NCBI GenBank assembly: GCA_030599585.1
Contig: JAUVNS010000002.1
Span: 256,001-320,000 of the forward strand
Origin: Promethearchaeota archaeon
Lineage (GTDB): Archaea > Asgardarchaeota > Lokiarchaeia > Sigyniarchaeales > SOKP01
Direction of reading: 5' to 3'
DNA length: 64,000 nt
The translations under genes and the position numbers were made by a program. Position 1 is the first letter of the stretch, and every line of letters starts with the position of its first letter. Below, piece by piece: positions 15,964-57,524 of the stretch. The notes beneath the pieces were generated by a model. The model was not told the DNA's origin. It made no database searches and saw only the letters and a program-made list of their open reading frames with translations.

Positions 15964-16848
15964 TTATATGTCTAATCCATTCATTTTCCCTAGAACTTTA
16001 TATAATCCTTGACTTCCTAAGTTCTCTAAACCTAAAGCCATAGCGTACATATAAAATTGATATGCGAGAGCAAGCCCGGGTAAAGACAAATTCATTAATT
16101 TTGCTTCTTTTAGTGCGATTCCCATATCTTTTACGAAGTGTTTAATAAAAAATCCAGGTTCAAAATTACTTTTGGCAATTCGAGGACCTAAATTGTTTAT
16201 TGACCAACATTCCGCAGCGCCCTTTCCAATTACGTTAATTACTTCGTTTAAGTCATTTCCAGCTTTATAGGCATATAAAAGGGATTCGATAGTGCCAATC
16301 ATTGTAGAAGCTATAAGAATTTGATTACTCATTTTAGTGTGTTGTCCTGCACCTTCTTTACCCATATACGAGATGTTTTTTCCCATTAAATTGAAGAAGG
16401 GTAATACTGTTTCATATGCTTCTTTATCACCACCAATCATAATAGCTAAAGTCCCGTTTTTTGCACCAACATCTCCACCCGAAACTGGCGCATCTAAAGA
16501 TGACACTCCCAATTTCTTCGCCTCGTTATAAATCCTTTGAGCGAGAGAAGGCTCAGAAGTAGTCATATCAACAATAATTGATTTTTTTTTTATTGTTTTT
16601 AAAATACCATTTTCTCCTAAATACACCTCCTCAACATCAAGAGGAAATCCTACAATCGTAAATAGAATGTCACTTTTTTCAGCAACTTCTTTAGGACTTG
16701 AGCACCAAATGGCACCTATTTGGACTAAATCATCAGCTTTTTCTTTTGTCCTATTATATACTGAAACAGAATATCCAGCGTTCAAGATATGAGCGCACAT
16801 CGATTTTCCCATTACACCTGTTCCTATCCAGCCAATATGTTTATCCAT
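15964..16848 (-). CDS. beta-hydroxyacid dehydrogenase (3-hydroxyisobutyrate / 2-hydroxy-3-oxopropionate reductase family)
   Basis: GWIGTGVMG, DAPVSGGD, GAGQHTKMSNQ, KHFVKDMGIAL. Confidence 0.92.
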   Translation of the reverse strand: MDKHIGWIGTGVMGKSMCAHILNAGYSVSVYNRTKEKADDLVQIGAIWCSSPKEVAEKSDILFTIVGFPLDVEEVYLGENGILKTIKKKSIIVDMTTSEPSLAQRIYNEAKKLGVSSLDAPVSGGDVGAKNGTLAIMIGGDKEAYETVLPFFNLMGKNISYMGKEGAGQHTKMSNQILIASTMIGTIESLLYAYKAGNDLNEVINVIGKGAAECWSINNLGPRIAKSNFEPGFFIKHFVKDMGIALKEAKLMNLSLPGLALAYQFYMYAMALGLENLGSQGLYKVLGKMNGLDI

Positions 16849-16967
16849 ATATTATTAACACCATTTTTATTAAACTACTTTAGTAATTAAAGAAGAGATT
16901 AGTTTAAATAAATTAGTAAACTTTTTCATAAAAATATATATGAGATATTAAGAGTTATATGTAGAAT

Positions 16968-24450: not shown

Positions 24451-25671
24451 ATGGATCAAAACTTTCTTTTACCTCAATATAACCTAATTTTAATTAGGTA
24501 CGCTGAAATATGGTTAAAATCGCAAAAAATTAAAATTCGTATGCTGAAATACTTAATGGGTAACATAAAAAACATCCTTAAACGAAAGGGAATACCCTTT
24601 AACAAGTATCAAATGAGTAAGGATTCATCGAGAGTTTTTTTCTTTTTTAATAATAAAGACCTTCCTTCTGCTATTAATGTAATAAAAAACGCGTTTGGTG
24701 TACATTCCTTAAGTCCAGCAATTAGGACATCAGACAAGCTTAAAAATATTACTGAAAGAACAATTGAGGTTGCGAAAGATATTCTTGATCGGAAAGATAC
24801 ATTTGCGCTCAGGGTTAAAAGGTCTGGAAAACATGATTATACCTCAATGGAAGTGGCTCAAATTGTGGGTAAAGCGGTTATTGATAATTTTCCGAACTAT
24901 GAATTGAAAGTAAATCTTACCAAACCAAAAAAAAAAATTTTTATCGAAATAAGGGGGGAATTCACCTACATTTTCTCTCAGATTATCAGAAGTAAATGGG
25001 GTGGTTTACCTATAGAACCTCAGAAAAAAATATTGGTAATGGACATAGGTAGGTTAAACGATTTAATTTCAGGCTTTCTATTAATGAGAAGAGGTTCTGA
25101 AATTTACCCTATATTAATTGATCTCACTGAGGATGAATCCGATATCGAAGATAGGATTTCAAACTGGAAAGAAATTGGTGAATATATCCCAAAAAATAAT
25201 ATTCGATTAGCCAAATTTAGAATATACGACGTTCTAAAGAAAGTTTATTCTGAGTTGGATGAAAAACAATATTTCTGCGGTATGTGTAGATTAATTAGAT
25301 TTGATTTAATGTCTAAAATCCTTATAAATCCTAAATTTCAATTTTATGAAAAAATTAAAGCAGTCACCGATGGTATCAGCTTAAATAATTCGGATTACTG
25401 TCCTGATTCCATTGATTTAGAGACTTTAGCTATCAATACTCTTAACTTAAGCCATCCCGTATTTACACCTCTCATTGGTATTGGAGAAAATAGGATTCAA
25501 GATTTATCGAAGAAAATCTCTAAAATCCTTAAAAAAGTTAATTACTGCCCTTTCAAACCAGTAAATCAAGTATTCGATGCTGAAAAATTGAAAGAATTAT
25601 ATACCAGTTTGAATATTGATAATGACCTTCTGTTTATAGTGGAAAGTGGATTAGAGATTAATTTATTCTGA
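24451..25671 (+). CDS. ThiI-like THUMP-domain protein with degenerate PP-loop
   Basis: IRYAEIWLKS, TFALRVKRSGKH, VNLTKP, GGLP; the SGGxDS motif is replaced by DIGRLND. Confidence 0.8.
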   Translation: MDQNFLLPQYNLILIRYAEIWLKSQKIKIRMLKYLMGNIKNILKRKGIPFNKYQMSKDSSRVFFFFNNKDLPSAINVIKNAFGVHSLSPAIRTSDKLKNITERTIEVAKDILDRKDTFALRVKRSGKHDYTSMEVAQIVGKAVIDNFPNYELKVNLTKPKKKIFIEIRGEFTYIFSQIIRSKWGGLPIEPQKKILVMDIGRLNDLISGFLLMRRGSEIYPILIDLTEDESDIEDRISNWKEIGEYIPKNNIRLAKFRIYDVLKKVYSELDEKQYFCGMCRLIRFDLMSKILINPKFQFYEKIKAVTDGISLNNSDYCPDSIDLETLAINTLNLSHPVFTPLIGIGENRIQDLSKKISKILKKVNYCPFKPVNQVFDAEKLKELYTSLNIDNDLLFIVESGLEINLF

Positions 25672-27334: not shown

Positions 27335-27438
27335 CGCAGACGGAGGGATTCGAACCCCCGAGCGCTCACGCGCACCGGCTTTAATGGTAATTATTCTTAC
27401 TTTCGAAGCCGGCGTCTTACCAGCTAGGCTACATCTGC
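27335..27438 (-). tRNA. tRNA-Ser(CGA) with 21-nt intron at 37/38 (27381-27401)
   Basis: Acceptor GCAGATG/CGTCTGC plus G73; anticodon stem CCGGC/GCCGG with TT-CGA-A; long variable arm GCGC-GTGA-GCGC; GGTTCGAATCC T arm; CCA not encoded. Confidence 0.92.
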
Positions 27439-37899: not shown

Positions 37900-38991
37900 T
37901 CATAAATATTTCTCAGCAATAGACGCAAAAGCGTCTAGAAATTTAGTATTTTCTTCTTCTGTTCCAACAGTGATTCTAATATAATTGTAAAGACCAGGTT
38001 TACTGAAATGCCTTACTAAAATTTTGAGATCTTTCAAATCCCATAAAAATTTTAGTGTTTTTGATTTGTCCTCAAATTTGACAAAGATAAAATTAGCATC
38101 TGATGGTAATACGCTAATTCCGGAATAATCATTCAATTTTTCTGATAGTCTGTTTCTTTCTGCTAATATTTTTTTATTCTGTTCGTAAACTTTATTCTTG
38201 TGTTTAATACAAGAAAGTGCAGCTATTTGCGCAATCTGATTAATGTTGTATGGTAATTTAACCCTATTCATCTCTTTAATTATCTCAGAATCAGCTAATG
38301 CGTAACCAATTCTCAACGAAGCAAGAGAAAATGTTTTTGAGAAACTTCGGCAAACGATTAAGTTTTTGACATCTTTCAATAATGGCAGGCAAGTATAATC
38401 GGAAAAATCGGCGTAGGATTCATCTACTACAACAATTCCAGGAAAATTGTAACATATTTTCAAAATCATATCATTATCGTACGATTTTCCATTAGGATCG
38501 TTTGGAGAATTAATAAACAGTAGTTTCCCTTTTTGGTCATAAACGCTTTCAGGTATACTGAAATCTTCGTTTAATTTTATTTCATTTATTTTAGCGTTAT
38601 AAAGATTAGCTAAAACATTATATAAGTTGTAAGTAGGGTAAAATATAGCAACTTCATCTCCAGGATCCACAAACACTTTGAAAATTACATCTAAAACATC
38701 TGCTGAACCATTTCCTAGGAAAACGGTGTTTCTATTAGTTAAAGTGTTTTTATCTCTTAACAGTTGATTAAGAATCGCCTTACGAACCTCAAGAGCACTT
38801 GGATCGGGATATTTTCTTAAGAGGTTTTTGTTTTTTAGTGCTGCATTTATATCCAATAGTATTTCTTCTATTGGTGGGTATGCATTTTCATTAATATTAA
38901 ATTTTACCCAATTTTCTCCAACGGGTTGTTCACCCGATTCAAAAGCTTTGTACTTGCTTAGGTTTTCTCTAAATAATTTTTCTAATTCCAT
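37900..38991 (-). CDS. hisC: histidinol-phosphate aminotransferase
   Basis: NEN, YPD, GNGSAD, SPNDPNG, VDESY, RSFSKTFSLASLRIGY, ANF, RITVG. Confidence 0.9.
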   Translation of the reverse strand: MELEKLFRENLSKYKAFESGEQPVGENWVKFNINENAYPPIEEILLDINAALKNKNLLRKYPDPSALEVRKAILNQLLRDKNTLTNRNTVFLGNGSADVLDVIFKVFVDPGDEVAIFYPTYNLYNVLANLYNAKINEIKLNEDFSIPESVYDQKGKLLFINSPNDPNGKSYDNDMILKICYNFPGIVVVDESYADFSDYTCLPLLKDVKNLIVCRSFSKTFSLASLRIGYALADSEIIKEMNRVKLPYNINQIAQIAALSCIKHKNKVYEQNKKILAERNRLSEKLNDYSGISVLPSDANFIFVKFEDKSKTLKFLWDLKDLKILVRHFSKPGLYNYIRITVGTEEENTKFLDAFASIAEKYL

Positions 38992-49967: not shown

Positions 49968-51506
49968 TCAAATCCTTTCAATCATCATTCCACCTAAGAT
50001 GATTGGCCCACCGGTTGAATTATAGATTTTTTCAGCTTTTTTCATTTTATTCTGGCTGTCAGAATATATTTTAAAGATTAAATCCCCTTCCTTGATTCTT
50101 GCTCCCTGTTTTTTAAAAATTTCAACACCTGATTGTTTTGAATGAGGACAACCTGTAGCTTTCGCTATCTGATTAATTATCGCATTATTTACACCAGTTA
50201 TGTGGCCAGCTTTTGTGGTGAAAAATTCTTTAGAATAGGGCCCTAATTTAATATCTTCAGGTTTTATTTCTGGGTTTCCACCCTGAATCTCAATAATTCG
50301 CTTCATTTTGTCGTAAGCTTTCCCTGAATGTAGTATTTCTTTTGCTAAACTTTGACCTTTTCCTTTTTGAACTTTTCCCCCCATTTCAAGCAATATACCT
50401 GCTAAATCAGTGGATTTTTCAATAAGAGAATTAGGACCAGCAGTATAATCATTAAGTAAGGTCAAAGCCTCTCTTGCTTCTAAACCGGGACCTATGGCGT
50501 GTCCGATAGGCTGATGAGCTAATGTTAAAGCACACTCCGCTTGAATCCCAACATTTTTGGCAATCTCTTTAAATATATAAGCAAATTGTTTACCCTTATC
50601 GGTGGTAGGAAATTTAGTTCCTTCTCCAACTGGTATATCTAAAACGAGTTTTTTGACGCCCAGGCTTAATTTTTTAGTGATTATGGAAGGAATCATAAGT
50701 CCTATAGGATCCATATGTAATGGACGCTCGATTTCAATTAAAATATTATCTGCTGGAGATGTATTTAGAGCACCACCCCAAATTATGCAAGCATTTTCCT
50801 TAGATATAATGCTTTTTAATACATCAGCTTCGAATGTTACAGGAGCTAAAACTTCCATTGAATCAGCGGTACCAGAGGGGGAAGTAATAGCTCTTGTTGA
50901 TGATTTTGGTATTGTTAAACCAGCAGCCGCAACGATTGGAACTATTATAAGCGTAACTTTATTGCCAGGAACGCCTCCAGTTGAATGTTTGTCATAAACT
51001 TCTGGACCGAAATCAAAAACTTCTCCACTTCTTGCTTCTGCATAAGTCAATGAAGTCATCTCTTCATTATCCATCCCATTTATTGAAACAGCTGTTATAA
51101 ATGCTGCTAAATCTATTTTTGATAATGAACCAGAGACCGTATCCGTAACAATTTCGTTAATTTCTTCTGCGGTAAGCTTATTTCCCCTTATTTTCTTCTG
51201 AATAAACTTAAAAGAATCGGGAGGGTCTGCTGGTTTCACGGATATTATAGTGTCATCTCGGAGATTCTTTTTTTCTTTAATAATATCCATAAAAATTCCT
51301 ATTTCTCCTGGATTCACGAGAGAGTTGGAATAATCAATTTGCAATATAGCAATCCAATATTTCTCTTCTATATTTTTAGTTTCTAAATTTTTGATGATGA
51401 TACGGTCACCTGCTTTTTGACCCAATTTTACCGCATCTTCAATATTTAAAACTACATCTTTAGTATTTCCGGTCTCAAAGTTAATTGTTTTTACTTTTAG
51501 CTTCAT
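49968..51506 (-). CDS. deoA: AMP (NMP) phosphorylase, archaeal thymidine phosphorylase family
   Basis: DKHSTGGVPGNK, PKSSTRAITSPSGTAD, SIITKK, DIPVG.GTK, IGPGLEA, QGG; archaeal N-terminal domain. Confidence 0.9.
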   Translation of the reverse strand: MKLKVKTINFETGNTKDVVLNIEDAVKLGQKAGDRIIIKNLETKNIEEKYWIAILQIDYSNSLVNPGEIGIFMDIIKEKKNLRDDTIISVKPADPPDSFKFIQKKIRGNKLTAEEINEIVTDTVSGSLSKIDLAAFITAVSINGMDNEEMTSLTYAEARSGEVFDFGPEVYDKHSTGGVPGNKVTLIIVPIVAAAGLTIPKSSTRAITSPSGTADSMEVLAPVTFEADVLKSIISKENACIIWGGALNTSPADNILIEIERPLHMDPIGLMIPSIITKKLSLGVKKLVLDIPVGEGTKFPTTDKGKQFAYIFKEIAKNVGIQAECALTLAHQPIGHAIGPGLEAREALTLLNDYTAGPNSLIEKSTDLAGILLEMGGKVQKGKGQSLAKEILHSGKAYDKMKRIIEIQGGNPEIKPEDIKLGPYSKEFFTTKAGHITGVNNAIINQIAKATGCPHSKQSGVEIFKKQGARIKEGDLIFKIYSDSQNKMKKAEKIYNSTGGPIILGGMMIERI

Positions 51507-51680: not shown

Positions 51681-52820
51681 ATGAATAAGTTTGAAAAAGC
51701 TCAAGAAGTACTCCATGAACTAGGTGGAGACGGTTGGTTAATAATATGCGTAGAGGCTAATGATATTAATTCCCGTTTCATGCTAGGAGTCGATTCTCCC
51801 TCTCGTCATTATATATATGTTGCGGCAGATGGAAATCATAAGATAATTGCAGTTGAAATGGAGGCTCCTATGATAGAACGCTCTTTAAAAAAGAAAGGAG
51901 TAAAAGCTGAGGTATTTTCTTACAAATCTATGAAAGAATTAGATAGGTTTCTGAGTCCTATTGTTAAAAAAACACGTGTAGCTTTAAATTTCGGAGAAAA
52001 TGTTTTGAGCCCAGAGGGAACGGGATTTGCAGATTTTATTAATGCTGGAGATTATTTGTCCATGAAAAAAATAGCACCCCAAACAGAATTTATATCAGCA
52101 GCTCCAATTATAGAAGCCTTAAGACGTGTAAAAACTCAAGATGAATTAACTGATTTACGAAATGTATGTAAAGCTACTATAGAAATTCTAGAGGCAATAC
52201 CCGATTGGGTAAAAGTTGGTATGACAGAAAATGATATAAAAGCGAAATTAGAATATGAATACATGAAATTAGGACGGCCCTCATTTGGATCAATAGTTGC
52301 TACTGGAACTCATTCGGCGGATCCACACCACAATACATCTTTGAAGAAAATCGAACCAGGAGTCTTGTTAATCGATTCGGGTTTACAAATAGATGAAATG
52401 AGTTCTGATATTACTAGGACATTCTGGGTCGGTGCAAATCCTCCTGAAGATTTCAAAAAAGCATATACGGCTCTATACGAAGCGAAGGATGTTGCTAATG
52501 ATTACTTTACTGATGGAACTCCAAAAAATGTACCTGGGTTAAAATGCAGAGAACATCTAACTACAAAAGGGTACGATCATGAAAAACTCTTTATCCATGG
52601 GTTAGGACATTCCCTTGGATTTGTAGCTCACGATATTGGGGGGAGCGTAAGCTGGAAAGTGCCTGAAACTTATAAATTTGAAGAAAACATGGTGTTTACC
52701 AACGAACCGGGTTTATATTGGAAAGATAAATGGGGAATTAGATTGGAAGATGATGTAATAATTGGTAAGGGCAAATGCGAACAAGTTACCAAAGTATCAG
52801 AAATTCCTGTTCTAATTTGA
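51681..52820 (+). CDS. Xaa-Pro aminopeptidase (M24 family)
   Basis: PHH, IDSG, SDITRT, HGLGHSLG..HD, NEPGLY, GIRLEDD; ATG 51681 preferred. Confidence 0.92.
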   Translation: MNKFEKAQEVLHELGGDGWLIICVEANDINSRFMLGVDSPSRHYIYVAADGNHKIIAVEMEAPMIERSLKKKGVKAEVFSYKSMKELDRFLSPIVKKTRVALNFGENVLSPEGTGFADFINAGDYLSMKKIAPQTEFISAAPIIEALRRVKTQDELTDLRNVCKATIEILEAIPDWVKVGMTENDIKAKLEYEYMKLGRPSFGSIVATGTHSADPHHNTSLKKIEPGVLLIDSGLQIDEMSSDITRTFWVGANPPEDFKKAYTALYEAKDVANDYFTDGTPKNVPGLKCREHLTTKGYDHEKLFIHGLGHSLGFVAHDIGGSVSWKVPETYKFEENMVFTNEPGLYWKDKWGIRLEDDVIIGKGKCEQVTKVSEIPVLI

Positions 52821-52837: not shown

Positions 52838-54145
52838 TTACAACTTGATAGAAAAAGGAAAATCCTTTATTTCTTCTATTTTATTCTGGTCTGGATCCAT
52901 AAATTTAATTAAAATTCTAATTACATAATCTCCCGCTTCAAGGGGTTTAAGGTTAATCTCCCATTTTATATCTTCGTTAGATTTAAGGGAGTAAATCTGC
53001 TTATTCGTGGTTCCCCTCATAACTTTTAATTGTTCCGGAAATTCAACATCCAACTTCAAATCTAAAGCTTCTCCTTCGCTCTGGTTTTCAATAGTAAACT
53101 CGAGTGGAAATGTTTTTTCGAGGAGAGGAGGTCTTAAATTTCTTATTGATGCTGTTAATGTAGCAGGAGGAGAAATTAAGTTAGGTATTAATGATTGAGT
53201 TTCATATAGAAAAATCAAATCGTTATTTAACTCACAGGTGAGTACCATAGGACCAATACTTGACTTGTCGACTTGAAAATGAGGTTTAATTTTGAATTGT
53301 AAATGAGTTTCTTTACCTATATCTAATGGTAACGGAACGCTTGGTTTATTGTGTGTTGCTAAATTATCAGACAAATTTATTAAAAATTTTGTGATGTTAA
53401 ACTGGTTCAATTCAAACTTATAGAAAGGGTTGTTTATGATTTCCACTAGAGGTTTCGTATCAAGTTTTAAATCTAAATTAAGAATTTCATTTGTGGTATA
53501 AATGTCTTTGTCTAATTTAAATGAGGTCGTAATGCTAAGCTTGATATGTGTTATAATTAATACCAATTTTAAGAGTTTTAATTCTGCTTCTCTAAATTTG
53601 TAATTTCCAACTTTATCTTTGATTTTTTTTACATATTTAGATTCATTTTTTCTCAAAGCTAGAGTAATTTCTGAAACAAGCTTAATCAGTTGATGCTCCT
53701 TAAAAAATTCTTTATCAACCTTCTTGCTAGTTTTCTTTAAAAACTCCAATCCTTCGTTTGGAGTTCCTTTAACATAGGAACACATGTAAGAAAGCACGGA
53801 GAATAGAACATAATTCGAGTTTCTATCCCCTTCACTCTTGAGTTTAGGAATGAGATTTAATGCTTCCTTATAAACGGGGTTTGCATCTCTAAAGTTATTT
53901 GCCCATAAACAAGCTTCTCCAGATTGTCTCAATAATTCTACACTGGTGTCAAAGCGTCCGATTTCAGTAAAAATTTTAGCACTGTTCATGAAACATACTT
54001 TTGCTTTTTCGTATTCATTCAAATTAAGCAATAACTTCCCAGCGGAATGGTAACTTTTACCTGCTTTTTTAAATTGTTTCGCTCTATATAGTTGCTCAGC
54101 TTTTAGTATCAGTTTTTCAACAGCTAATCTTTGGTCTTTTCCCAT
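52838..54145 (-). CDS. TPR/SNAP-like helical solenoid + two Ig-like beta-sandwich domains
   Basis: KAEQLY..AGKSYHSAG..YEKAKVCF TPR-like helices; C-terminal FTIENQSEG...WEINLKPLEAGDY. Confidence 0.65.
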   Translation of the reverse strand: MGKDQRLAVEKLILKAEQLYRAKQFKKAGKSYHSAGKLLLNLNEYEKAKVCFMNSAKIFTEIGRFDTSVELLRQSGEACLWANNFRDANPVYKEALNLIPKLKSEGDRNSNYVLFSVLSYMCSYVKGTPNEGLEFLKKTSKKVDKEFFKEHQLIKLVSEITLALRKNESKYVKKIKDKVGNYKFREAELKLLKLVLIITHIKLSITTSFKLDKDIYTTNEILNLDLKLDTKPLVEIINNPFYKFELNQFNITKFLINLSDNLATHNKPSVPLPLDIGKETHLQFKIKPHFQVDKSSIGPMVLTCELNNDLIFLYETQSLIPNLISPPATLTASIRNLRPPLLEKTFPLEFTIENQSEGEALDLKLDVEFPEQLKVMRGTTNKQIYSLKSNEDIKWEINLKPLEAGDYVIRILIKFMDPDQNKIEEIKDFPFSIKL

Positions 54146-54355
54146 TTAAAATCACTATTGTTATAAATTAAACGTGAAATTAATAATTGAGGGATTGTTT
54201 TGACTTATTGGCATCTAAAACCAATAATTCTTCACAAGAGTGTGTTAAATACTAGAACAAGAAATCTTAATATTATATATTTACAAAAATATGAAAAAGA
54301 AGTTTAATTGAGTTAAACTTCAAAAAATTAAAAAATAGGGGGTAAAACTTTTATT

Positions 54356-54424
54356 ACCGAAACCATGACAATATGGTTCGTCTTCTTGCGACTAATATTT
54401 TCTCGCAAGATTCATCCTTTCGGT
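54356..54424 (-). promoter_or_regulatory. eukaryote-type SECIS-like element in the 3' UTR of hdrA-vhuD
   Basis: Minus strand reads ACCGA AAGG AUGAA UCUUGCGA GAAAAUAUUAG UCGCAAGA AGAC G AACCAU AUUGUC AUGGUU UCGGU: AUGA/GA core, 8-bp stem, A-rich loop; begins 6 nt after the vhuD stop. Confidence 0.8.
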
Positions 54425-54430
54425 TTAATG

Positions 54431-54898
54431 TTATTTCTTTTTTTCTTCAGAATCTTTTTTCTCAGCTTCTTTGATCAGTGATGCTTTAATGGGGTTAGTT
54501 CCTAGATTCTCTATTATTTCAGTTACTCGGATAACTTCTTCTTGAAATTTTTGACCTTCAGCTGCACTACAGCTAAACATTTGGATTCTCTCGGGTGCTA
54601 CTCCTGCTGTTTTTAAAATTTCCTTTGTGTATTCTACATTCTTCGCCGCTACTAAATTCCCAGTTTCGTAATCACATTCTCCTTTATATCATCCAGCAAC
54701 TATTACGCCATCTGCTCCCTTTCCAATAGCTCTCATCATTAAACTAGGTGTAACTCTCCCCGTGCAATTTATCCTTATTGGTCTAATTGTTGCGGGATAT
54801 TGAGCTCGAATCGTACCGGCCATGTCTCCAGCGCCATAACCTCATTTCCAACACATAAAGGCTAAAATTTTTACTTGGTCTTTTACATTCGCTGTCAT
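54431..54898 (-). CDS. vhuD: hydrogenase iron-sulfur subunit MvhD/VhuD, selenoprotein (U19, U70), 155 aa
   Basis: MTANVKDQVKILAFMCWK-U-GYGAGDMAG..INCTGRV..GADGVIVAG-U-YKGECDY..GN..SAAEG; TGA at 54844-54842 and 54691-54689; absent from the ORF track. Confidence 0.93.
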
Positions 54899-54911
54899 AT
54901 TTTACACCTCT

Positions 54912-56888
54912 CTATATATTTTCCAATATAGCATCAATTTGTTTTTCGTATTGGGGTTCACGATAGTATCTTAAAGTTATTGCTTCTGAGGGACAATTAG
55001 CTAAACAAGCGCCACATCCTCTACATAGAATTTCATCAACTTCAGCACCATCAGGTTCTACTTTAATAGCGTCGTAAGGGCAGTTAAGTTGACATAATCC
55101 ACATTTCGCACACTTTTCATTATCAACAGTTGCACGGATTAAGAGAATTCGGTATTTATCCTTCATCATTAACCGTGCTAAAGAAGAAGCAGCTGCTCTT
55201 CCTGACGCTATTGAGTCCGAAATCGCTTTAGGCCCTTGAGACACCCCAGCTAGCACAATTCCTGGAATTTTCGTATCGATAGGGTTTAATCTCGAATGAA
55301 ATTCCTTGAAAAAACCATCATGACTTTTTTCAAGTTTTAAGATGCTTGCGATTTTTTCGATTCCTTTAGCTGGCACCATGGCACTAGATAAAACAACTAA
55401 ATCGTACTCAAATTCTTTTAATTTAGTAGTTCCAACCGTGTTTTGTAACGCAACCTTAAGATTGTGTGTTTCGGGATCTTCTTGAAGTCGGGAAACATTT
55501 GTTCTAATGTATTTTATTCCCTCTTTTCGAGACGCTGTGAAGTATTCCTCGTAATCTTTCCCCGCTGCTCTTATATCCATGTAGGCTACAGTGACATCTA
55601 TATGGGGAGAGTGTTGCTTAATGAGTTTTGTATTCTTAACAGAAATCATACAACACACACCTGCACTGCAGTACGTCTTCCGAGTTAAATCTCTTGAACC
55701 AACGCATTGAATGAACAAGACACTTTTCGGTTCTTTTCCATCAGAGGGACGCTTTAAATGTCCAATCGTAGGCCCGTTAGGTGCTAATATCCGTTCAAGT
55801 TTTAATTGAGTGATTACATTAGGATAGACATTGTATCCTAAATAACCCGTTTCAGGTTCGTATTCGTCCCATCCCGTTGCTACGACTATCGACCCAACCT
55901 TAACTTCCAGAAGTTCGTCTTCTTGATCGAAATCAATTGCATCCACTTCACACGCTTTTATACACAAACCACACTTAATACATTGCGTCATATCGATTTG
56001 TGCCAACATTGGAACTGCCTGTGCGAATGAGGCATAAATTGCTCTCCGGGGATCCAAACCTTCGTTAAATTCGTTATATCCGTAAGCAGGACAGACCTCC
56101 CAACAAGCACCACAACCGTTACATTCGTTATTTACGTATCTTGCTCTTTTCCGGATCTTAACCTCAAAATTACCTACAAATCCAGTTACTTCTTCTACTT
56201 CACTGTATGTATGTAAGTTTAATCCCGGAGTTCTAGCTGTTTGAAGCATTACTGGCCCGAGAATTCAGATACTACAATCGTCCGTAGGGAAAGTTCGGTC
56301 AAGCATTGCCATTTTACCGCCAATCGTTGGTTTCTTTTCAACTAAGTGCACTTCAAATCCTTCTTCAGCTAAATCGATTCCTGCTGATAATCCAGCGACC
56401 CCACCACCAATAATAAGAGCCTTTTTTGTAATATCCACTTCTTTAATTAAGATTTTTTCTAAAGTGGAAGCTCGAGCAACTCCAGCGCGAATAGCGTCTT
56501 CAGCAGTACTCTTTGCCCCCGGTCTATCGTTTCTATGAACAAAACTTGAGTGTTCTCGAATATTAACGAATTCTAAGTAAGATGGATCCAAATTCATATC
56601 TTCCAACACGCTTTTAAAAACGGGCTCGTGAGTTTTTGGTGTACACGCTGCCATAAGTAATCGATTAGCATTAAATTCAATCATCTTTTCCTTAATGAAC
56701 TCAGCACCGGACTGTGTTCATAGCGATATATAATCTACTGCTTCGACGACATTCGGTAAAGCTTTCGAATATTCTGCTAACGCTTTTGTATCGATTATTT
56801 CAGCGATATTAAGACCTCATCGGCAGATAGTAATTAAGATTCTGACTTCATCATTTTCAGTCATTACTTTGTCTTTAGTTTCTACCAT
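54912..56888 (-). CDS. hdrA: heterodisulfide reductase subunit A, selenoprotein (U24, U57, U208), 658 aa
   Basis: One frame from ATG 56888: ICR-U-GLNIA, YISL-U-TQSG, AACTPKTHE, IGGGVAG, RTFPTDDCSI-U-ILGP, ferredoxin motifs, IQCVGSR..YCSAGVCC; TGA at 56819-56817, 56720-56718, 56267-56265. Confidence 0.93.
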
Positions 56889-57096
56889 TGCATAATTCTC
56901 CTTGTGTTATTTTGTTAGTTCCTCCAATAATTTTACGCTAATTATTATACATGAAATATTTTATTCTAATTTAAAATAACGATTAAAAAAATTAACTTTA
57001 AATCAGTATTCTTTTATATATCTTTTATTATTGATGGAATTAAAAATATTCGATTAAATCAAATTTAAATAGATTTTCCACGGTTATTACTTTAAG

Positions 57097-57510
57097 ATGC
57101 TATTTACTTTTTTACAGATGGGAACTCCTTCAATAGATGAACTACTCCCATTTATCATTATGGGCGCGTTCGCTGCAGGAGATATATTGTTATTAAAGTT
57201 AGCATTAGTGGTAACTAAAGCCCAGAAAAGAACACGGATGAAATGGGTTGCGGGAAGTTTTGCTATTCAATTTGGAATAATTTTTATTATTAGTTCTCCC
57301 TTGTTTTTGCAAGCTTTTATGGGTTCATTTAAAGGAGAACTTGATGTAATAATTCCTATCGTTATCCTTTCATTATTTATAGATCTCAACGTGATAAACG
57401 TCTTACATCAAGTAGGTCTAAAGCGTTCATTTGGCATTCTTTTGATTACTTTCGTTCCTATAATTATCGTAATGATTATATTAGGAAACACATTTGCACG
57501 AATGCCATAG
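57097..57510 (+). CDS. hypothetical 4-TM membrane protein
   Basis: Four hydrophobic segments. Confidence 0.7.
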   Translation: MLFTFLQMGTPSIDELLPFIIMGAFAAGDILLLKLALVVTKAQKRTRMKWVAGSFAIQFGIIFIISSPLFLQAFMGSFKGELDVIIPIVILSLFIDLNVINVLHQVGLKRSFGILLITFVPIIIVMIILGNTFARMP

Positions 57511-57524
57511 AATCAATATGTGAC

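Follow-up and report, generated by a model that had tools for sequence, protein, structure and literature searches.

One SECIS element behind vhuD and five in-frame UGA codons in an hdrA-vhuD locus of a Lokiarchaeia genome

The 64,000-nucleotide (nt) stretch of Promethearchaeota archaeon DNA analysed here (contig JAUVNS010000002.1, positions 256,001 to 320,000; "the window", whose numbering is used throughout) carries on its minus strand two adjacent genes, hdrA and vhuD, with five in-frame TGA codons at positions of cysteine or selenocysteine (Sec). They are accompanied by a single Sec insertion sequence (SECIS), an element of the type known from Lokiarchaeota (lokiSECIS), which is situated behind vhuD (Table 1). 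Overall, the locus is very probably explained by a bicistronic mRNA on which this one 3' element, as part of a three-way junction, acts in cis on all five UGAs. The shared-SECIS arrangement of hdrA and vhuD has been known for Lokiarchaeota since 2016, and the window locus represents another species' copy of it, not a new phenomenon.

A sequence-only reading of the window had assigned three in-frame TGA codons to hdrA and two to vhuD, and both the sequence itself and alignments with solved structures bear this out. HdrA consists of four Fer4 stretches and a FAD/NAD-binding fold (Pfam) and aligns end to end (residues 16-656, E 5e-195) with chain 9sfi_A of a solved Hdr-Mvh/Vhu complex. Opposite U208, the canonical HdrA Sec position, this chain displays a residue printed as X, which is read as selenocysteine; opposite U24 and U57 it displays Cys. 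VhuD is formed by an FlpD/MvhD domain (PF02662, 1.7e-42 in Pfam) with two Sec about 50 residues apart, U19 and U70, which face two X residues of chain 9sfi_K, likewise read as selenocysteine. Codons 24 and 208 of hdrA are TGA in 28/28 orthologs. The column of codon 57 contains TGT in 17, TGC in 6 and TGA in 5 of them, and this codon is thus directly exchanged between Cys and Sec. Among the HdrA paralogs of this genome, five different Sec positions are in use.

As had been noted from the sequence, the genes lie 13 nt apart, which leaves no room for a SECIS between them. In nearly all of the 29 orthologs the spacer starts with AGAG/AGAGGTG or a similar sequence, and its length varies from 4 to 15 nt with gene starts as called here. 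Runs of five or more T are absent from this gap and from vhuD, and hdrA contains two, which is chance level. In combination with the four T5-T6 runs past the element, this distribution fits a single transcription unit ending just after the SECIS.

By a genome-wide pattern scan, eleven elements of lokiSECIS shape were collected, ten of which served as seeds of a covariance model (R1). In a search with R1, a covariance-model check having been proposed, the element behind vhuD scores 54 bits (E 6e-12), although it belongs to the seeds; 36 bits are reached by the eleventh element, held out of the model (the C24a copy). The core is composed of AUGA 5' and GA 3' of a 9-bp stem, with an A-rich apical loop of 11 nt (GAAAAUAUUAG) that starts A-rich and ends in a G preceded by A. 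Eight of the nine stem positions of helix II are Watson-Crick pairs, and the basal one is an A-A pair. No Rfam SECIS family matched at E <= 10 in 54000-57300, or at gathering score across the whole window.

With R1 run filters off on both strands of 53500-58500, the next-best match reaches just 11 bits (E 0.3). A generic scan for kink-turn hairpins (AUGA...GA/AA) yielded 5 hits compared with 2.6 in shuffled sequences, and no outlier except the true SECIS. When 28 orthologs from the genus are aligned by codon, the three hdrA UGAs are flanked by a synonymous diversity of 0.88-1.22 times the gene mean; since it is not lowered, no conserved local RNA structure appears to be hidden there. Reduced synonymous change 3' of the UGA, the signature of a bacterial-type SECIS or a Sec-redefinition element, is not found at any of the three codons. 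These results agree with the earlier statement that no SECIS resides in or upstream of hdrA and that one element after vhuD is left, up to about 2.4 kb from the UGAs it would serve; the computed distance to UGA24 is 2404 nt. In conclusion, a single lokiSECIS accompanies hdrA and vhuD, the one after vhuD.

Within vhuD, just before U70, an AUGAUGA-containing stretch on the minus strand (54686-54744, AAUGAUGAG...CUGGAUGA) scores 11 bits with R1 (E 0.3) and 13.5 bits with the Rfam C/D-box family sR5, both at noise level. At the start codon of vhuD, an AUGA hairpin (54898-54847) was rejected, as one paralog compared (C26) has no AUGA there. No covariance-model score was obtained for a GTGA hairpin where the coding region of C24a-type hdrA begins, and a pattern match at C26:25902 reached 11.9 bits and was counted as false.

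The element had been described as a single hairpin. This description has to be revised, since the hairpin is predicted to be one arm of a three-way junction that is supported by covariation and closed by helix I. In all eleven elements of the genome and in three from two other genera, a short G+C-rich hairpin (hairpin III) follows 0-4 nt past the GA. In the same 14 elements the 5' flank, ending 2-7 nt before the AUGA, pairs with the sequence after this third hairpin and forms a closing helix. Under strict junction limits the three-way junction forms in 12/14 elements, compared with 6-42% of shuffled flanks. A second covariance model (R2) was seeded with the three-helix structure, the window element being among its seeds. 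In the R2 alignment of 16 elements, which was fitted to the model and leans towards the three-helix structure, compensatory changes occur at 20/20 pairs (helix I 5/5, helix II 9/9, hairpin III 6/6), and pairing holds in 92% of the cells, compared with 57% in shuffles and <= 50% with slid partners. The loop of hairpin III contains GC in 13 of the 14 elements inspected; the exception is the window element, with GU.

It is possible, if rather doubtful, that the functional unit is the whole junction of helix I, kink-turn arm and G+C-rich hairpin III, a fold resembling a 'k-junction', in which the third arm would dock an Asgard stand-in for the SECIS-binding protein SBP2 and a larger complex would serve many distant UGAs across two cistrons. 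The 'k-junction' is reportedly due to Wang and colleagues (Wang et al. 2014).

The genome encodes the full machinery of a Sec-decoding trait of archaeal/eukaryotic type. A search for it had been suggested, and tRNASec, EFSec, PSTK, SepSecS and two selD genes were recovered. SepSecS scores 377 bits, PSTK belongs to the KTI12/PSTK family (122 bits), EFSec is a protein of 480 amino acids (aa) with GTP_EFTU, D2 and aSelB_III domains, and each selD gene contains one TGA. The tRNASec gene was located by blastn with the tRNASec of relatives, and was missed by ARAGORN, by a whole-genome search with RF01852 and by two structural scans because it is interrupted by two introns, one of 28 nt after position 37 in the anticodon loop and one of 30 nt in the T loop. 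The spliced tRNASec comprises 90 nt, with a 9-bp acceptor stem, a 4-bp T stem, a UCA anticodon, a long variable arm and a G discriminator. It matches the tRNASec of a relative at 81/89 positions, with compensatory differences in the acceptor stem; the relative's RNA reaches 63.9 bits with RF01852, above the Rfam threshold. The only whole-genome match of RF01852, a tRNA with an anticodon read as UAG (Leu), was discarded.

Relatives in the genus possess an intron-less copy of tRNASec. ARAGORN reported 17 tRNAs for the whole genome, and a 104-nt tRNA in the window (27335-27438, minus strand; 42 bits, Rfam), probably intron-containing, is missing from its output. The tRNASec gene resides in an island of Sec genes (L020:11083-19103, contig C28) in which Roadblock/LC7 and EFSec are followed, divergently, by genes for a 289-aa zinc-ribbon coiled-coil protein and a 116-aa uncharacterised protein, two NUDIX genes, tRNASec, SepSecS and a 228-aa uncharacterised protein. 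This gene order is kept in five further genera of the family (L151-L157, L160, L022, L024). The zinc-ribbon gene stands beside EFSec in a second family (G013) and beside tRNASec in a third (G015, G017), at 26-28% identity; it was sought phylum-wide with a single sequence, a search that becomes less sensitive beyond the family. A hypothetical protein near Sec genes is mentioned by Huang et al. 2024 (PMC11227280).

Internal controls are provided by the other copies in the genome. Five Sec-type hdrA loci are present, four with a Sec-type vhuD and one with hdrA alone, and each displays exactly one SECIS (36-55 bits) after its last gene. At the hdrA-only locus (contig C20 of this genome), the SECIS starts 20 nt past hdrA, and at another hdrA-only locus (L128) a standard lokiSECIS lies directly 3' of hdrA. 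The Cys-type copies of hdrA and vhuD (contigs C9, C13, C18, C50, C52) contain neither in-frame TGA nor SECIS.

The comparison was extended to 74 Sec-type hdrA loci in 41 genomes of the genus, 30 of them orthologous (window locus included) and 44 paralogous. All 74 loci have one SECIS, at -17 to +20 nt relative to the final stop codon, and the hdrA-vhuD junction ranges from +24 to -23 nt. The stop codon of hdrA is TGA in 0/74 loci (TAA or TAG in all), whereas that of vhuD is TGA in 30/71, where it lies within the AUGA, abuts it or precedes it by up to about 20 nt; both counts are inflated by kinship among the genomes. Genome-wide, TGA terminates 363/2703 long open reading frames (ORFs), or about 13%. 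In the window, too, hdrA and vhuD end in TAG and TAA while thiI-like, aminotransferase, deoA-like, pyrF and peptidase genes end in TGA, a contrast already drawn in the sequence-only reading and confirmed by the coordinates. That hdrA never and vhuD often ends in TGA is expected if distant upstream UGAs are recoded, with UGAs on the element or beside it exempt. The same reasoning was proposed by Mariotti et al. 2016 (Mol Biol Evol 33:2441; PMC4989117).

In 13/29 orthologs (L043, L045, L046, L048-L051, L053-L055, L059, L061, L066) the stop of vhuD is the UGA of the SECIS AUGA itself or abuts it, so that a ribosome terminating there has to occupy the SECIS core and unwind helix I. Six more lokiSECIS were observed behind small genes with in-frame TGA (C20:52503, C21:176757, C26:252454, C26:120350, C34:226786 and C40:117301). 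Their products are a VhuU-like C-terminal sequence (DCULSCAAH), a PrxL whose two Sec codons are spaced three codons apart, a zinc-ribbon protein with U at its C terminus, two membrane proteins of small size and one protein with UU. At the six elements the closest presumed Sec UGA precedes the AUGA by 45 nt, and the closest presumed stop UGA precedes it by 8 nt or lies inside it. A whole-genome R1 search in five other genera produced thousands of first-look candidates, 150 of which were scored. In a second family sampled (G015, G017), the regions 3' of vhuD did not fit the type I model of Asgard SECIS-like elements.

These observations suggest the following course of events. hdrA and vhuD would be co-transcribed into one bicistronic mRNA that extends from the AT-rich region 5' of hdrA to the oligo-T runs past the SECIS. 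In its 3' untranslated region (UTR), the one SECIS, of Lokiarchaeota type and with a kink-turn-like AUGA/GA core and three-way junction, would mark this mRNA for Sec decoding and, by looping of the RNA, act in cis. Directly or via a further protein as the presumed SECIS reader, it would bring archaeal-type EFSec and Sec-tRNASec to ribosomes that meet a UGA, and any upstream UGA on the same RNA would be served, in whichever ORF it is located. The three UGAs of hdrA, 1.85-2.4 kb away, and the two of vhuD, at 276 and 429 nt, would thus be read as Sec, vhuD being translated from a separate ribosome-binding site within the 13-nt gap. UGAs on the element or within about 20 nt of it would act as stops.

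Parts of both genes are matched, at 90-99% identity, by short metatranscriptome contigs from three studies, which weakly support expression of both. One such contig spans the hdrA-vhuD junction of a paralog.

Several points weigh against the proposed decoding from one bicistronic mRNA. The assignment of Sec to the five UGAs in this organism rests on sequence, and none of the metatranscriptome contigs listed bridges the gap between hdrA and vhuD. Models derived from known SECIS shapes could miss elements of another kind inside hdrA. Archaeal translation can begin on nascent RNA, in which case the first ribosome would arrive at UGA24 well ahead of synthesis of the SECIS, which lies 2.4 kb further downstream. 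To our knowledge, no SECIS-binding protein has been described for such an element. The genome lacks an SBP2-like protein and contains just two short genes of the L7Ae family (open frames of 134 aa each). Finally, a lokiarchaeal SECIS was not functional in Methanococcus maripaludis (Peiter and Rother 2025, PMC11881835). If the whole junction is the functional unit, this could explain the failure of a minimal Loki SECIS in Methanococcus. Constructs for functional tests should hold the full junction 54356-54424 and not the core hairpin alone.

Alternatively, hdrA might be equipped with a signal of another kind, namely a local stem-loop at each UGA, of the bacterial kind or like eukaryotic Sec-redefinition elements, or an element in the 5' UTR, leaving the 3' SECIS to vhuD alone. 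Such a signal would escape R1 and R2, which detect just the known lokiSECIS shape, and the weak AUGAUGA-containing match in vhuD could be counted in its favour. However, synonymous constraint is unchanged beside UGA24, UGA57 and UGA208, and the generic hairpin scan is without outlier apart from the true SECIS. Moreover, the standard lokiSECIS right after hdrA at both hdrA-only loci indicates that hdrA uses this kind of element, and the complete absence of TGA stops from hdrA is what recoding of every distant UGA on the mRNA would produce. A separate signal for hdrA is accordingly considered improbable. A division into two transcripts, with an internal promoter near the end of hdrA giving rise to a vhuD-SECIS mRNA and a long hdrA mRNA that reads through or uses the SECIS in trans, is given an equally small chance. 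Co-transcription of the two genes is presumed, and internal promoters are common in AT-rich archaeal genomes. Yet the hdrA mRNA would still need a SECIS, and action in trans would leave unexplained why TGA stops on many other mRNAs are not recoded. Spacers of just 4-24 nt, overlaps of up to 23 nt and the lack of an oligo-T run between the genes argue against separate transcripts as well.

That the in-frame TGAs do not encode Sec at all, and represent assembly errors, stops of pseudogenes or codons read as Cys or Trp by near-cognate tRNAs, is hardly credible. It is true that the Sec reading was made from sequence and that the assembly, apparently from a sediment metagenome, consists of 52 contigs with an estimated contamination of 8.9%. 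But the same codons are TGA in 28 independent genomes while the flanking synonymous sites vary, the TGA positions match Sec in solved structures, SECIS elements are confined to loci with in-frame TGA, the Sec machinery is complete, and TGA is a normal stop codon in this genome (363/2703 long ORFs). Among the read differences listed for RNA and DNA runs, none is situated at a TGA codon; 296 further differences are outside this listing. Translation of both genes from one mRNA with a shared 3' SECIS remains the best explanation of the locus.

The sequence-only reading had held that Sec-containing HdrA and VhuD and eukaryote-like SECIS were known from Lokiarchaeota, which is correct, and had seen the open part in the mechanism by which several UGAs are decoded across cistrons. 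Sharing of the SECIS across the HdrA-VhuD boundary has itself been published (PMC4989117, PMC11227280), and what is left to explain is the mechanism. In the account of Mariotti et al. 2016, all HdrA-VhuD tandems have a single lokiSECIS, downstream of VhuD, and are most likely translated from one polycistronic mRNA; the element can support as many as six UGAs across about 2 kb, UGA never serves as the stop of HdrA, and no other form of life is known to decode several UGAs of two cistrons through one distal SECIS. Huang, Xiao and Zhang (ISME J, 2024) report, from several hundred Asgard genomes, that hdrA and frhD (= vhuD) share one structure. The window locus resembles the tandems of PMC4989117 in gene order, in its very short junction, overlapping in other copies, in a multi-Sec HdrA and a two-Sec VhuD, in an HdrA stop that is never UGA and in a VhuD stop that often is, sometimes being that of the AUGA. 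Its element resembles the lokiSECIS described there in the AUGA, the 9-position stem, the 11-nt A-rich loop ending in G, the GA and the location after VhuD. In contrast to the 'about 2 kb' given there, the farthest UGA is 2.4 kb from the SECIS. The element also falls within the limits of the Asgard type I eukaryotic SECIS-like (eSECIS-like) model of PMC11227280 (GA_GA core, upper stem of 7-15 bp, apical loop of 8-20 nt). That model consists of core, upper stem and apical loop, and helix I and hairpin III of the window element are outside it. In the passages of text consulted in PMC4989117 and PMC11227280, no description of the three-way junction was found.

Like eukaryotic SECIS elements (Rfam SECIS_1, SelenoP), the window element is a 3' UTR structure whose AUGA...GA core is presumably a kink-turn and whose apical loop has unpaired A residues. 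It also resembles those of the SelenoP mRNA, with its many UGAs, in serving several UGAs from afar; that mRNA contains two SECIS elements (PMC4989117) compared with one here. Unlike eukaryotic SECIS, it lacks an Rfam match at E <= 10, has a shorter helix II, carries a hairpin on the 3' side of the internal loop and belongs to a presumably polycistronic mRNA, and SBP2, a large protein with an L7Ae-type domain, was found neither in this genome nor in PMC4989117 and PMC11227280. VhuD and HdrA of Methanococcales and Methanopyrus are orthologous proteins with Sec at the same positions and a SECIS in the 3' UTR. Unlike here, each methanogen gene keeps its own SECIS, of a different shape (GAA_A kink-turn-like loop), as both papers describe; an AUGA...GA/AA motif is reported below the methanogen VhuD SECIS (PMC4989117).

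Table 1. Coordinates of the hdrA-vhuD locus and of other features named in the text (window numbering unless a contig is given)
Feature	Position	Strand	Remarks
Three-way junction	54356-54424	minus	helix I + SECIS arm + hairpin III; 97 bits with R2
Helix I	54424-54420 with 54360-54356	minus	ACCGA with UCGGU
lokiSECIS core	54381-54415	minus	starts 15 nt past vhuD stop codon
AUGA	54415-54412	minus
Helix II	54411-54403 with 54391-54383	minus
Apical loop	54402-54392	minus
GA	54382-54381	minus
Hairpin III	54378-54373 with 54366-54361	minus	AACCAU, loop AUUGUC, AUGGUU
T5-T6 runs (four)	54285-54335	minus	directly 3' of SECIS junction; likely archaeal oligo-T terminator
vhuD (MvhD/FlpD family)	54431-54898	minus	155 aa; two Sec codons; stop TAA 54431-54433
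vhuD UGA codon 70 (GU)	54691-54689	minus	276 nt 5' of SECIS AUGA
vhuD UGA codon 19 (CWKU)	54844-54842	minus	429 nt 5' of SECIS AUGA
hdrA-vhuD spacer	54899-54911	minus	13 nt, AGAGGTGTAAAAT; Shine-Dalgarno-like GAGGTG for vhuD inside
hdrA (heterodisulfide reductase subunit A)	54912-56888	minus	658 aa; three in-frame TGA = Sec codons; stop TAG 54912-54914
hdrA UGA codon 208 (DCSIU)	56267-56265	minus	1852 nt 5' of SECIS AUGA
hdrA UGA codon 57 (LU)	56720-56718	minus	2305 nt 5' of SECIS AUGA
hdrA UGA codon 24 (CRU)	56819-56817	minus	2404 nt 5' of SECIS AUGA
AT-rich region 5' of hdrA	56889-57096	minus	208 nt; presumed promoter + 5' UTR; no SECIS-like match
ORF divergent from hdrA	57097-57510	plus
thiI-like gene	24451-25671		stop TGA
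Aminotransferase	37900-38991		stop TGA
deoA-like gene	49968-51506		stop TGA
M24 peptidase	51681-52820		stop TGA
pyrF	57525-58442		stop TGA
tRNASec	contig C28 (L020), 16776-16923		exons 16776-16816, 16845-16878, 16909-16923; directly upstream of SepSecS

The operon region is flanked by two minus-strand ORFs of 435 and 322 aa (52838-54145 and 59406-60374), neither with a Pfam match at E <= 1e-5.

The arrangement is placed where the archaeal Sec system is proposed to have passed into the eukaryotic one, which makes its mechanism of real interest. For such work the locus is a clean case that brings its own natural controls: hdrA-only loci, Cys-type paralogs, the Cys/Sec switch at codon 57 and the opposite use of TGA stops in hdrA and vhuD (0/74 versus 30/71).

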